This document shows positions 46,674 to 56,654 of a stretch of 64,000 nt of DNA, in pieces; position 1 is the stretch's first letter; each line of letters starts with the position of its first letter. The notes beneath the pieces are model-generated. The model searched no databases, was not told where the DNA came from, and saw only the letters and a list, made by a program, of their open reading frames with translations. The position numbers and the translations under genes are program-made. Origin of the DNA: an uncultured Actinomycetota bacterium (GTDB lineage Bacteria; Actinomycetota; Actinomycetes; S36-B12; UBA10799); the NCBI GenBank assembly GCA_963769435.1, contig CAVYLN010000001.1:959768-1023767 (forward strand), in the 5' to 3' direction.

Positions 46674-49169
<2,496 letters not shown>

Positions 49170-49220
49170 CCGTAGACTCCCATCGCACGGTGATTTCTCA
49201 CTCTAGCCTCGACCTACGAC

Positions 49221-49298
49221 AACGACGAGTTCGTTTGTGTGCTTCCCGGCTTCGCCCAGGGTGAACGCGGCGACCTCGGCCGGGCACGCACCGCGAAC
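49221..49298 (-). promoter_or_regulatory. clpC control region: SigR/SigH-type promoter plus ClgR-like sites
   Basis: GGAAG-N18-GTT at 49246-49221; GTTCAC-N5-GCGAA at 49266-49251; GTTCGC-N5-GTG at 49298-49285. Confidence 0.55.
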
Positions 49299-49364
49299 AC
49301 CCGGACAGATTCCATTTCACATGTGAAGCCGATTCTGTCCAAGTTTCGCGCGGGCCGACCCCCG

Positions 49365-51446
49365 TCACTCCGGAGAGGCCCCAAGCCGCAGGTCGTGGCA
49401 GGCGAGCAGGAACTCCGAGGCGGACCACGCCTGGTAGGCCTTGCCCATCGGGCGGCCGGTCTCGCCGTGCGCCCACTCGTTGAACTCCCACTCCGTCGAA
49501 GATCCCGTCCTGGTTGAGCTTGGCCAGCTTGACGAGTTCCTGGTAGGCGATCTGGCGGTAGCCCAGGCGCTGGATGAACCTCACCCACTGGGCGCCGATG
49601 AACGGCCAGATCCCGCCGTTGTGGTAGTGGTGCGGGAGGTTCAGCAGGTTCACCGTGTAGTAGGGCGCGCCAGTCCGGGTCACCGGAGTGCACGACCGGG
49701 TAGAGGTTCTTGACCGGCCACGGGTCGTTGATCCCGACCCCCCACATGAAGCGGAAGGCGATCTTGGCCCGTGCCACGTCCAGGACGTTGAACAGCGAGG
49801 CGAGGATGTTGCCGTAGACGTCGCAGCGCCAGTTGAAGTCGAACGGCGTCACCTGCGCCAGCAGGTACCGGGTGTCGCCGACGCCGAGTTGCCGCTCGGT
49901 GAACATGGAACCGGCACCCTCGTCGCCCTTCGGCCCGGTCGTCGGCCAGAACCGGTCCAGCAGCACCGACTTGATCGTCTGCGACCAGCGCAGGTAGTCC
50001 GCCGCCCGCTCGTGTTCCCCGGCCAGTTCCAGCATCCGGCCGAACGCGACGTTGGCGCGGTACCACAGCACCTCGTCGACCAGGATGTTGTAGCTGCGGC
50101 CGAACAGGTCGGTCCAGTCCCCGGCCTCCGGGATCTCGAGCAGGGCGTCGTTGTTGCTGTCGTGCGCGCTGAGCCAGTTCATGGCGTGCTGCAGACCCCA
50201 CAGCCGCTCGCGCAGGAAGCGCGATGTCCCCGGAGTTGCGCACGTACTCGTACATGGCGATGACGGTCCACAGACCCGGAGTCGATGGAACTGATCCCGC
50301 CGACCCCGGAGTAGTCGGGGATCTCCTCGTCGATGGTCACGTTGGCCGGGATCTGACCGTTGGGACTCATGTGGTTGAGCAGCGTCTCCAGGGTCCTGCG
50401 ACGCGCACGCCCGGATCTCCGGATCGTCGAGGTGCATCGAACCGACGACCGCGACGGACCCGTCGCGCGCCCAGACGCTGCGGTAGTTCACATCGGTGCC
50501 GTGGACCAGGTTGTCCTCCAGCGAACACGCGGAGAAGCCCAGCGGGGTGATGTTGCGCTTGAGCGCCTCGACCGCCTTGGCGTACGCCGGTCTCCAGCAG
50601 TTCGATGTCCTCGCGCGACAGCCCGTCGACGTGCTCCTCGTCGAAGATCCGCTGGATCGCCGGGTCGAGTCTGCTTGGGCCATTCGTGGTCGTCGTACTC
50701 GGGGATCTCGCGTGATCACACCGTAGTGCTGCAGGCCCTCGAGCACGCCGTCGGCGAAGTGCTCCTGCGCCTGGATAGGTGGGCACGGACAGCGTGCGGG
50801 CGGAGAGTTCCGGCTGCGCGTTCTCGACGACGATCCCGCGGACGCCGGGGATGAGGAACATCGCCGAGTCGTTGCCGGTGTCACCGGCCACGACCACCTC
50901 GTGGGCCTTGATCCCCAGTTCGTCCAGGAGCCAGCGCAACGAGTTGCCCTTGTTGGCCATCTTGGGCAGCACGTCGAGGTCGCGGGCACTGGAGTAGACG
51001 AGGTTGACCGTGACCCCCTCGGCGTTCAACAGGTCCTCGAGCTGCTGGATCGCCTCGTCCTCGGCACCTTCGAGGTACCAACTGGACTTGTAGCGGTGCT
51101 GGAACTGAGGCGGTTGCCGAACGGCGTTCGTGGCGGCCTGCACGATCGACTCGATGGTGCCCTTGTCCCACCCCTCCTCCATGACCTCGGAGAACTCCTT
51201 GAGCATCGTCTTGGCCTTGAAGTCGTAGATCATGGTGCCGACCCCGCAGATCGCGAAATCCGGCTCCGGCAGGTCCGTGTTGGCGATCACCTTGACGGTG
51301 TCGTTGAGCAGCCGGCCGGTCGTGTAGCACAGCAGCGGGCGGGCCTCGTCGGGGATCGAGCGCCAGGCATGGTTGAAACGCAAGGTGGCGTCGGGTTTGC
51401 CCAGAAGGGTTCCGTCAAGGTCGGAGCAGAACATCCGTACTGACAT
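49365..51446 (-). CDS. HAD-IIB (sucrose/mannosylfructose-phosphate phosphatase-like) domain fused to a GH100-like (alpha/alpha)6 glycoside hydrolase; multiple frameshifts
   Basis: FCSDLDGTLLG, DLDVLP..ANKG, AGDTGND; then NYRSVWARDG, IPEAGDWTDLF, YHNGGIWPFIG, EFNEWAHG..GKAYQAWSA. Confidence 0.8.
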
Positions 51447-51531
51447 GCGAATCCTTTCGAGTCGGCCCCGGACGCCCACCCTAGCCCGCGCCGGGGACGC
51501 AGGGAGGTTGAGCGGATCCGGCCGATCGCGA

Positions 51532-52840
51532 TCAGACGAACGAGTCGGTCACGTCGAAACTCGGAGTGCCCCGGGACTCCACGGCGCTGATCAACTGCTG
51601 GGCGATACCGGTCCACGTGAACAGTGCCCGCACGCGATGTGCGCCGTCGCGGTGCAGTCGCTCCCGCAGCCTCTGGTACTTCAACGCCTGCAGCAGAGCG
51701 ATGCCGAACTCCTGCTTGTCGGTGGTGTCGGCGTACAGCGCCTGTGGATCCGAAGTACACGGCCCGCCACAGCCCACCGTGGGTGGTCATGACCGTCGGC
51801 GCCCCACAGGCCATGGCCTCCACCGCCGTCATCCCGAACGGTTCGTACCGGCTGGACAGCGCGAACACGTCGGCCGCGCGGTAGAAGTCGGCCATCTCGT
51901 CGTCCTCGAGGGATCCGGTCAACTGCACGCGGTCCTCGAGACCGTACTCGCGGACCTTCGCAACGATCTCGTCCAGGATGTCGTTGTCACCGAAGTCGGA
52001 GGTCTCGGCGCCACACGCTATCCGCAGCCGGGCTTCCGGGATCCGTTCGGCGACCACGCTGAACGCGTCCACGAGCAGGTCGAAGCCCTTGTTGCGCGCC
52101 AGTCGCCCGATGGAGGCGATGACCAGACCCTCGTACCCCAGCGACTCCCGGATGCTGTCGCGCGTCGCACCACTGACAGGGAAGAACCGGTTGTCGTCGT
52201 AGCCCGGCGGGATCATCTTGATGCGGTGAGCCGCCACGTCGTAATGCTCGCGCAGCAGGTCCACCTGCGGCGGCGAGGTGGCGATCACCATGTCGCACTC
52301 GCGGAACAGCGTCTCCTCGTGGTGGATGCGCCGGCTGAAGTTGTACTGCTTCTCCATCTCCTCGGCGGACTTGTCGGAGTCCTGCTCCATCTGGTGCTTC
52401 TTCCAGTACCCCAGCGAGTGCGGGGTGTGGATGTGCGGCACGTCGAGCACGTTGGCCAGGTGCTGGCCCGCCAGGCCGGCGTCCCAGTAGTGGCTGTTGA
52501 TGAACTCGTACTCCAGGCCCTTGTTCTTGATGAAGCGCAGGGCGTTCTCACCCCACTCGGGGAGTTTCTTGTAGAGGTACTCCTTGGGGATGAACTCGGG
52601 CCCGCCGCAGTTCATCCGGATGATCCGGACATCCTCGTCGACGACCTCGATCTGCCGCTGCTTCTCGAAACGCCGGGTCCAGATGTCCACGCGGTAGCCC
52701 AGTTGCGCGAGTTTCTTGGACAGTTCGAGGACGAAGACCACCTGACCGCCGGTGTCGGGGGCACCGAGCGGGGGTTCCGCGGCCACGTACCCGTGTGTGG
52801 AGATCATGGCTATCCGTTGCTTGCGCCGCCGGGGGGCCAC
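51532..52840 (-). CDS. mfpsA: GT4 sugar-phosphate synthase, mannosylfructose-phosphate synthase (MfpsA)/SPS-like, frameshift near 51745
   Basis: ISTHGYVAAEPPLGAPDTGGQVVFVLEL, FIPKEYL, INSHYWDAG, HTPHSLG, SSRYEPFGMTAVEAMACG; gene symbol assigned from recalled similarity. Confidence 0.75.
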
Positions 52841-52970
52841 TGCAAATCACCTCGTCAGATCGCGAACCACTGCCCTGATACTACCCGTGGGCCCGCGAGC
52901 GACACACCCCCACGCGCAACCGGGCTCCCCGGCGACGCCGACCACGCCGTTCGGCGGGGTACCCTCCAGG

Positions 52971-53841
52971 ATGCGCACTTCTCCGGGAGGGGACGACCTA
53001 CAGATCCGGCCGCTGGAACGCTCGGGGTTGGATCTCGTGATGCAGTGGGCCGCCGACGAGGGCTGGAACCCCGGCTCGTGCGACGCGGGACTGTTCTGGA
53101 ACACCGACCCCGAGGGGTTCCTGGGCGTGGAGTCGGACGGCAGGCTCGTGGGTGCGGGGGCGATCATCGACTACGGGCGGGCGTTCGGCTTCATGGGGCT
53201 GTTCATCGTGACCCCGGAGCTACGCGGCCGAGGCGTCGGCCGCCGACTCTGGTACCACCGTCGGGACACCCTGCTCGCACGGTTGCAGCCCGGCGCCGCG
53301 ATCGCACTGGACGGGGTCAAGGACATGGAGGGCTTCTACGCCGGCGGCGGTTTCCGTGCCACACACGACGAGGTCCGGATGTCGACCCGGGCGCCGCGCG
53401 CCGTCGGGGGTGGGGCCGAGCCGGTCACGGAAGTCGACGAATCGATTGCCGCGCTGGACGTCGCATGTTTCGGTGCGGCCAGGCCGGCGTTCCTCGGACC
53501 CTGGCTGACAGCGCCGGGCCACATCAGCCGCGCGGTGCGGCACGACGGGCGGATCGTGGGCTTCGGAACACTTCGGCCCTGCCAGTCGGGTTTCAAAGTG
53601 GGTCCGTTGTTCGCGGAGTCCGCCGACGTGGCCGACACCATCTTCAGATCCCTGTGCGCGGACCTGCCCGAGAGCGCCGAGGTGTTCGTCGACGTTCCCG
53701 AGGTCAATCGGGAAGCGATGAAGTGGATCGCGACCCGGGGTGGCAACGGAGGTCTTCCGGTGCGCCCGGATGTACTACGGATCCCCGCCCGACACCGACT
53801 GGGCCAAGGTTTTCGGCATCACCACCTTGGAACTGGGCTGA
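52971..53841 (+). CDS. GNAT N-acetyltransferase with YitH-like C-terminal domain, frameshift near 53745
   Basis: WAADEGWNPG, FMGLFIV..ELRGRGVG, KVGPLFA, reconstructed end ARMYYG...FGITTLELG*. Confidence 0.85.
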
Positions 53842-53997
53842 TCTCCCGGCGAAGGTTGTGAACATCACGTCACGGGGCGCACAGATGTTTGCACGCTTTG
53901 CCGAGAAGGCCCAGTTCGCCCGAACTGACCCCGCCGATCGCGCCCAAGCCTCCCGACAACCCGACGTGGATTGCTCAGCCGCACTACGCTTCCCGGG

Positions 53998-56644
<2,647 letters not shown>

Positions 56645-56654
56645 GAGGCACACC

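Follow-up and report, generated by a model that had tools for sequence, protein, structure and literature searches.

The window analysed here is a stretch of 64,000 nucleotides from an uncultured Actinomycetota bacterium (GTDB lineage S36-B12; UBA10799), which corresponds to positions 959,768 to 1,023,767 of contig CAVYLN010000001.1 in the assembly GCA_963769435.1. Its minus strand carries a gene at 49365-51446 which, when all parts of the explanation are taken together, probably encodes a single cytoplasmic protein of about 690 residues in which two catalytic domains are combined. The N-terminal domain resembles the sucrose-phosphate phosphatases (SPP) of the HAD-IIB group, the C-terminal domain resembles the glycosidases of family GH100, and the protein would work as the partner of a family GT4 glycosyltransferase encoded immediately upstream. 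Judged from its sequence, the protein would most likely dephosphorylate a hexosyl-fructose phosphate and also be able to hydrolyse the free disaccharide. It would thus unite the reaction that completes a disaccharide solute with the one that begins its breakdown.

One open frame for two domains

The existence of a single-polypeptide fusion at this locus had been proposed from the letters of the window (hereafter, the original prediction), and its limits prove to be exact, as the ATG lies at 51446-51444 and the stop codon ends at 49365. The motifs quoted with it (DLDGT, GDTGND, GVLEGLQHYG, WARDG, YHNGGIWP, and EFNEW) are all present. No single frame is open across the gene in the window itself, where the protein is spread over nine pieces in three frames, and the longest listed open reading frames (50367-51479 and 49214-50989) each cover a part of it. 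When nine bases are set aside, the gene has no stop codon and its product shares 91% identity with those of the two nearest intact relatives.

The single frame is observed directly in the relatives. In all six same-genus genomes that carry the gene, a single uninterrupted frame measures 701-757 codons between stops, or about 690 from the ATG. None of these intact copies has a stop codon between the phosphatase and the glycosidase domains; such a stop codon had been set beforehand as fatal to the idea of a fusion. The intact protein taken as reference, P0001 (690 aa, from a same-genus genome), is assigned by Pfam to both S6PP (222.6 bits) and Glyco_hydro_100 (56.8 bits). Likewise, the best 120 of 2386 matches in the protein collection all contain PF05116 together with PF12899, and 119 of them span 685-727 aa with 99-100% query coverage, so that the intact homologs of about 700 aa which had been anticipated do exist. 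The linker between the two domains is about 45 residues long, and a model of the full-length protein has a predicted local distance difference test (pLDDT) score of 66-67 at residues 250-270. The remark that indels blur the junction was also accurate, as four of the nine extra bases of the window copy fall in it or beside it.

Phosphatase domain

The N-terminal domain is, by the sequence criteria applied, a predicted S6PP/HAD-IIB phosphatase that shows every feature checked except NCBI's strict cut-off for SPP. The Pfam family S6PP (PF05116) matches residues 4-242 of P0001 with 222.6 bits against a cut-off of 20.3, and the piece of the window at 50772-51446 reaches 203.9 bits by itself (E=4.1e-60). 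The solved SPP of Synechocystis sp. PCC 6803 (1S2O) is matched with E=3.4e-29 by P0001 and with E=1.6e-43 by a profile of 26 homologues. The HAD-IIB fold is shared across the whole 244 residues of that enzyme, with a template modelling (TM) score of 0.82 by target length and 29% identity. The HAD motifs I (DxDxT), II (T/S), III (K), and IV (GDxxND) agree with 1S2O and all lie within the first piece of the window copy; Asp9 and Asp11 have identical numbers in the two proteins and are followed by TGR, KGN, and GDxGND in register. The residues D9, D11, T13, G44, R45, K166, D189, N192, and D193 are invariant in all 26 sequences. On the other side stands the NCBIfam equivalog model for SPP (TIGR01485), whose cut-off of 183.65 bits is missed with 165.6 bits. 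Unlike the Synechocystis enzyme, moreover, the domain makes up just the first third of a chain of about 690 residues.

Glycosidase domain

The C-terminal domain would be called GH100-like rather than GH100 proper, because its fold, its Pfam score, and its catalytic pair fit the family whereas its architecture, a gap at the position of one InvB arginine, and an identity of about 20% depart from it. A model of the domain built with AlphaFold2 (AF2) from 58 diverse fused and stand-alone relatives has a pLDDT of 90.7. The GH100 invertases (InvA and InvB of Anabaena, 5GOO and 5Z74, and the Arabidopsis enzyme 6TTJ) clearly surpass all other families in structural similarity to it. GH100 enzymes fill ranks 1-28 of the Foldseek search with TM scores of 0.71-0.74, and in VIA-align the family reaches Z scores of 40.3-43.6 (root-mean-square deviation 2.8-3.1 over 378-388 residues), against at most 36.3 for other families. 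This model supersedes the full-length AF2 model from 26 close sequences, in which the active-site loops had pLDDT values below 50 and the TM scores with GH100 were just 0.55-0.58.

In Pfam, the last 440 residues score above the cut-offs of four six-hairpin families, with GH100 in first place. The GH100 profile (PF12899) gives 56.8 bits for P0001 against a cut-off of 23.6, with the best stretch at profile positions 275-429 of 435; a stand-alone relative, P0150, reaches 104.4 bits, and the stand-alone relatives cover positions 28-433. In HMMER alignments, D444 corresponds to Asp188 of InvA, E654 to Glu414, W671 to Trp434, and W611, within one position, to Trp376, so that the catalytic Asp and Glu and the two platform Trp residues of GH100 align with the domain. 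The roles of these residues in InvA and GH100 are described in two papers (PMC6995568, PMC13671375). R326, D327, D387, D444, N607, W611, and E654 are invariant in all 58 fused and stand-alone relatives. The putative catalytic acids, the loss of which had been named beforehand as a second finding against the fusion, are therefore retained throughout.

Several observations weigh against a plain assignment to GH100. Identity to the family is only about 20%, and the Pfam match is good just over the last third of the profile. The domain also passes the cut-offs of GDE_C, MGH1-like, and Bac_rhamnosid6H. Furthermore, the equivalent of Arg430 of InvB falls in a three-residue gap, a placement that comes from a HMMER pairwise alignment and not from a residue-level superposition; in InvB, this arginine is reported to be important and to assist the catalytic Glu.

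Distribution, gene order, and descent

The fused gene is present in 6 of 13 other same-genus genomes and was not found in the remaining 7, nor in 11 other genomes of the family, nor in 16 genomes from the order's other families. Among species-representative genomes, at least 559 stretches encode a relative of the fused protein, mostly in Verrucomicrobiota. The supposition that similar fusions exist unstudied in other phyla was thus well founded, given that no study of the fusion was found in the literature searched. The family is about 60% identical across phyla and common in Verrucomicrobiota of soils, sediments, and waters. Cultured carriers include Prosthecobacter debontii (P0036), Pelagicoccus albus (P0117), Opitutaceae bacterium EW11 (L055), Verrucomicrobium sp. 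BvORR034 (L083), and Horticoccus sp. (L066). The family is present in the databases under automatic names and appears to have gone unstudied; the names among the best 120 matches are 'HAD-IIB family hydrolase', 'sucrose-6F-phosphate phosphohydrolase' (Joint Genome Institute, JGI), and, in UniRef, 'beta-fructofuranosidase'.

The gene order is conserved and was observed directly. Of 79 loci, 65 have a GT4 gene on the same strand, and with two exceptions it is located upstream of the fused gene. Flanks of at least 1.4 kb were available upstream in 72 loci, and 71 loci had a downstream flank; in 30 of the latter, a PfkB kinase gene starts within 240 nucleotides past the stop codon. Recurrent neighbours include a mechanosensitive channel (11 loci), a universal stress protein (10 loci), a chloride channel (4 loci), the two members of a two-component pair (11 and 10 loci), and a sodium:solute symporter (8 loci). 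These counts are not independent, because the carriers are mostly kin, and they weigh less for the proposed pathway than their size implies. After 8 of the 79 loci had been excluded by a filter on length and motifs, the tree comprised 71 loci, of which 63 are from Verrucomicrobiota, 3 from Spirochaetota, 2 from Lentisphaerota, and 1 each from Chloroflexota, Bacteroidota, and a lineage without a named phylum.

The fused-gene tree was made with FastTree only and rooted on distant fused forms. In it, the actinobacterial clade has a Shimodaira-Hasegawa-like support of 100, is nested in verrucomicrobial sequences, and adjoins a group of Terrimicrobiaceae and Verrucomicrobiaceae (support 96). Because of this nesting, the sequences suggest that the gene reached the actinobacterial genus by transfer. 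The upstream GT4 is also closest to a Terrimicrobiaceae copy (72%), which suggests that the two genes were transferred together.

The glycosidase domain also occurs by itself. Among the best 150 cluster representatives of its family, stand-alone proteins of 380-480 aa account for 86, fragments for 50, and fusions to the phosphatase for 11, and a single one carries a fused PfkB kinase. The state switches between fused and stand-alone at least three times in a FastTree phylogeny of the domain. The kinase-fused relative, P0224 (730 aa, from a metagenome), carries a C-terminal PfkB carbohydrate kinase domain (164.8 bits) and sits among the stand-alone forms in a FastTree tree.

Comparison with known systems

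A paper on GH100 describes the family as single-domain and without associated domains (PMC13671375), whereas the glycosidase domain here is fused to a phosphatase of 245 residues. According to a plant-centred survey, GH100 homologues occur only in cyanobacteria and proteobacteria (PMC10661998); the carriers of the fused gene, in contrast, belong to Verrucomicrobiota, Actinomycetota, and other phyla.

The enzymes of sucrose metabolism are built from modules, and SPP is frequently joined to a partner from the pathway such as the synthase, as described in a preprint (bioRxiv 10.64898/2026.09.11.751015). The two-domain proteins of cyanobacteria and plants, which combine sucrose-phosphate synthase (SPS) with SPP, resemble the present case as modular SPP fusions. 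They differ in that their partner is the synthase of the preceding step, whereas here the SPP-type domain is joined to an enzyme that would degrade the product.

The closest parallel in logic involves trehalose. A cluster of the ESM Atlas (119 members of about 843 aa, mostly Actinomycetota) combines Trehalose_PPase, TREH_N, and Glyco_hydro_15, with Pfam shares of 98-99%. It follows the same arrangement of phosphatase plus hydrolase, although the domains are unrelated. The match was obtained by language-model features (0.82, rank 4) and serves as a lead only. To our knowledge, the fusion of trehalose-phosphate phosphatase with GH15 trehalase is likewise uncharacterised. Another comparison is offered by the mannosylglycerate and glucosylglycerate hydrolases of GH63 (4WVA, 5OHC), which have a clan-type fold and break down compatible solutes (Foldseek E about 1e-10, TM 0.61-0.64). 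Their match is clearly weaker than that of GH100, and, unlike the protein here, they are stand-alone enzymes.

In Agrobacterium tumefaciens, MfpsA and MfppA form a pair similar to that of the window, a GT4 synthase beside an S6PP-family phosphatase, although the GT4 of the window is placed with them by JGI automatic names only. We know of no hydrolase domain in the Agrobacterium mannosylfructose system. A search of four libraries gave no model named for MfpsA or MfppA.

A GH32-like protein of 514 residues, an S6PP-type HAD protein of 245 residues, and a GT4 stand in a row on plasmid p1 of Paracoccus sp. TOH (L101:2674-6266; one record). The start of the HAD gene overlaps the preceding stop codon, and the GT4 is 48% identical to that of the window. 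The 514-residue protein was considered as a relative of the C-terminal domain and ruled out; its BLASTP E value is 2.6, and it is weakly GH32-like.

No description or assay of the fusion, nor of sucrose genes in Verrucomicrobia, was found in a literature search that left subscription journals largely outside its scope. The one mention of 'mannosylfructose' found for a verrucomicrobial genome is the legend of an exopolysaccharide (EPS) cluster.

Proposed function and identity of the disaccharide

The following scheme is inferred with respect to all enzymatic activities, to the substrate, and to any regulation. The GT4 enzyme would join an activated hexose to fructose-6-phosphate, yielding a sucrose-type disaccharide 6F-phosphate. 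The N-terminal domain would strip off the phosphate, with Asp9 as the nucleophile and Asp11 as the acid/base. The C-terminal domain would be a GH100-type alpha-glycosidase with an inverting mechanism, in which Asp444 serves as the acid and Glu654 as the base, and would convert the free disaccharide to hexose and fructose. The original prediction had described GH100-type enzymes as cleaving fructosides; this has to be amended, as PMC13671375 presents GH100 as alpha-glucosidases that act on sucrose, not as fructosidases. Finally, the adjacent PfkB kinase of many carriers would re-phosphorylate the fructose.

This scheme has to face the fact that its two activities are opposed, since without regulation nucleotide sugar would simply be burnt. 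No regulatory feature or element was seen, and no activity measurement was found for any member of the fused family, both of which weigh against the scheme. The fusion of a finishing step with an undoing step makes sense only if both are reciprocally controlled. The balance between making and breaking would presumably be set by conditions such as ionic strength, and the stress-related neighbour genes suggest control by osmotic state. The switch between accumulating and degrading an osmolyte that the original prediction put forward is likewise a proposal drawn from the architecture and the adjoining genes.

The profile scores of the upstream GT4 also tell against an unqualified sucrose pathway. 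The GT4 gives 210.5 bits with the NCBIfam model sucr_P_syn_N (TIGR02472) against a cut-off of 576 and scores equally with MshA (217.1 bits, cut-off 462.5). Its matches in the PDB are similarly divided between MshA (3C48, 5.9e-52) and SPS (6KIH, 4.4e-49). Sucrose is favoured in that the nearest solved relatives of both domains of the fused protein act on sucrose or its phosphate, and the JGI name of the fused protein is sucrose-6F-phosphate phosphohydrolase. On balance, sucrose comes close to an even judgement, mannosylfructose is a possible though lesser candidate, and some other disaccharide is unlikely.

The mannosylfructose alternative deserves to be set out. The GT4 would then be a GDP-mannose:fructose-6-phosphate mannosyltransferase, the N-terminal domain a mannosylfructose-phosphate phosphatase, and the C-terminal domain the first known mannosylfructose hydrolase, so that the cassette as a whole would make and break this sugar. 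Torres and Salerno reportedly described in 2007 that the Agrobacterium pathway consists of a GT4 and an S6PP-family phosphatase in one operon. Among the best 120 homologues of the GT4, all 21 that JGI names are called mannosylfructose-phosphate synthase, and the name sucrose-phosphate synthase occurs in none of the 34 named rows; the clade of the Paracoccus homologue bears the mannosylfructose name too. The GT4 and the phosphatase domain both miss the NCBI equivalog cut-offs for sucrose enzymes, and the neighbouring family GH63 includes the solved hydrolases of mannosylglycerate and glucosylglycerate. The JGI names are, however, automatic transfers of KEGG Orthology (KO) terms and may be circular, and the same source gives the fused protein a sucrose name. 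The solved relatives of the two domains, as stated above, also speak for sucrose, and a gene for handling GDP-mannose or mannose occurs in none of the 26 recurrent neighbour families scanned. The alternative is therefore held tentatively, as somewhat improbable but worth keeping in view.

A more far-reaching proposal, considered doubtful, is that the protein is a gated make-and-break enzyme which sets the pool of a fructose-containing disaccharide osmolyte, possibly mannosylfructose, and that this design has arisen more than once. A repeated origin is argued from the at least three events of fusion or fission, from the non-homologous GH32-like hydrolase that Paracoccus has next to the corresponding two genes, and from the phosphatase-trehalase fusions.

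The departures of the C-terminal domain from GH100 also allow a different reading, in which it does not hydrolyse the product of the pathway at all. Rather, it might bind sugar or have a regulatory role, act as a phosphorylase or transglycosylase, or hydrolyse some unrelated alpha-glycoside. The low identity to GH100 and the missing equivalent of Arg430 agree with this, and so do the Z scores of 33-36 for other six-hairpin enzymes, including phosphorylases of GH94 and the GH65 type. An inbuilt futile cycle also seems wasteful. Nevertheless, both the acid and the base are invariant in the 58 sequences, whereas inverting phosphorylases of the (alpha/alpha)6 fold lack the base residue. The phosphatase, moreover, has been joined to this domain family repeatedly, with at least three changes of state, and the occurrence of one relative fused instead to a PfkB kinase speaks for a common pathway from which a phosphorylatable hexose is released. 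Another function for the domain is hence judged improbable, and hydrolysis of the pathway's own disaccharide is retained as the preferred reading.

Origin of the frame breaks

The nine frame breaks are most probably assembly errors and not signs of gene decay, because of the bias towards insertions, a similar lesion in leuS, the clean contigs of related metagenomes, the low ratio of non-synonymous to synonymous substitution rates (dN/dS), and the lack of other damage. The nature of the indels is seen directly in DNA alignments to two same-genus genomes, in which each break is a single extra base (sites in Table 1). Isolated events in the 54,120 bases of the window aligned to both relatives amount to 24 insertions of one base versus 2 deletions of one base, and the inspected insertion sites lie mostly outside homopolymer runs. 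Likewise, the genome's only leuS is divided into frames of 437 and 599 codons, split at profile position 348/349, with one isolated extra base exactly at the break; two relatives have a single frame of 914 codons. This base lies outside the window (G000:C1, about 445713; L102 position 1502).

Contigs from three public metagenome runs (X1-X3) bridge five of the nine sites, and the extra base is absent at all five. The bridging pieces are 93-98% identical to the window, all but one at 95% or more; the sites at about 50587, 50669, 50710, and 50775 are bridged by no contig. The dN/dS of the fused gene is 0.09 and 0.125 against the two nearest relatives, where intact copies span 0.04-0.31, and the window-specific changes comprise 40.5 synonymous versus 11.5 non-synonymous. 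The gene has neither in-frame stops nor deletions besides the nine insertions. As regards programmed frameshifting, the nine sites share no common motif, and the relatives need no frame change.

Some facts sit less easily with assembly errors. The genes rpoB, rpoC, clpC, ileS, valS, gyrA, and two dnaE are all intact in the genome, and insertions are about nine times denser at 49.4-56.2 kb than over the remainder of the window, for which a lower read depth over an accessory cassette can be offered as a guess. In addition, none of the public runs was found to contain this assembly; the highest share of sampled words was 0.19. A true pseudogene, in which the insertions are real mutations of a sugar cassette decaying in this strain, would account for the concentration of 14-15 frame breaks in the cassette and its neighbour and for the intact long housekeeping genes, and would suit a cassette that is dispensable (no copy was found in 7 of the 13 other same-genus genomes) and a set of other nameable hit genes that are accessory (those for a solute-binding protein, an FtsX permease, an AP_endonuc_2 protein, radA, and disA). 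It is nevertheless very improbable, given that natural bacterial indel spectra are biased towards deletions whereas the events here are insertions (24 versus 2) mostly outside homopolymers, that a single-copy essential leuS bears the same kind of lesion, that the dN/dS indicates no relaxed selection, that no in-frame stop or deletion remains once the nine bases are removed, and that contigs 93-98% identical lack the extra base at every bridged site.

Features of the locus

Table 1. Positions of the fused gene, its parts, and adjoining features in the window
Feature	Position	Strand	Remarks
Fused gene	49365..51446	minus	SPP-type HAD-IIB phosphatase, linker, and GH100-like (alpha/alpha)6 glycosidase (predicted); about 690 codons plus nine extra bases
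N-terminal phosphatase domain	50714..51446	minus	residues about 1-245; DLDGT, TGR, K of KGN, GDTGND; extra base at about 50775
Linker and start of C-terminal domain	50586..50713	minus	three extra bases within or at the edge: about 50710-50712, 50669, 50587
C-terminal GH100-like glycosidase domain	49365..50584	minus	WARDG, SIDSG, GDWTD, YHNGGIWP, EFNEW
Extra bases in the glycosidase domain	about 50395-50401, 50273, 50221, 49667, 49493	minus	relative to two same-genus genomes
Putative Shine-Dalgarno-like GAAAGGA (AAGGA box)	51452..51458	minus	5 nucleotides upstream of the ATG, as read from the sequence
GT4 glycosyltransferase, SPS/MshA-like	51532..52840	minus	upstream of the fused gene, gap of 85 nucleotides; extra base near 51744-51749

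The GT4 gene also shows a frame change in tblastn, which comes from one extra base. A scan of 49000-53200 for promoters and terminators gave a signal no higher than that of shuffled sequence.

Beyond the GT4, a GNAT acetyltransferase gene (52752-53861, plus strand; Acetyltransf_18 82.9 bits, Acetyltransf_1 41.4 bits) lies between it and a glycosidase gene of the MGH1-like/GH63-like type. At the position of the GNAT gene, two same-genus relatives have just about 220 bp. The glycosidase gene (53971-56646, plus strand; Pfam MGH1-like_GH 65 bits) has about 890-930 codons in relatives and in the window carries at least four extra bases that break its frame (54822, 55205, 55348, and 56200). It adjoins the cassette only within the genus and in none of the 79 loci of other taxa. 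Other genes of the window with a changed frame are the homologues of radA and disA (about 43547, 43789, and 44293), the AP_endonuc_2 gene (about 40302), and those for the solute-binding protein and the FtsX permease.

Implications

The fused gene appears broken only through insertion errors in the assembly, and gene calls on this genome will yield false pseudogenes. The copy in the window adds an actinobacterial member to the family, probably gained by transfer.

Solutes of the sucrose type are usually described as being made and broken down by separate enzymes. In this strongly conserved family, by contrast, the last synthetic step and the probable first degradative step are placed in one chain, within a compact operon in which the synthase and, in many cases, a sugar kinase are also encoded. 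Provided that both activities are under reciprocal control, the family would offer a simple and testable model for the tuning of an osmolyte pool, as well as a function for hundreds of genes labelled just 'HAD-IIB family hydrolase'. Should the gated make-and-break proposal hold with mannosylfructose as the sugar, the C-terminal domain would be the first hydrolase known for it. A repeated origin of the design, whichever the sugar, would point to a general bacterial way to switch quickly between the accumulation and the removal of a solute.

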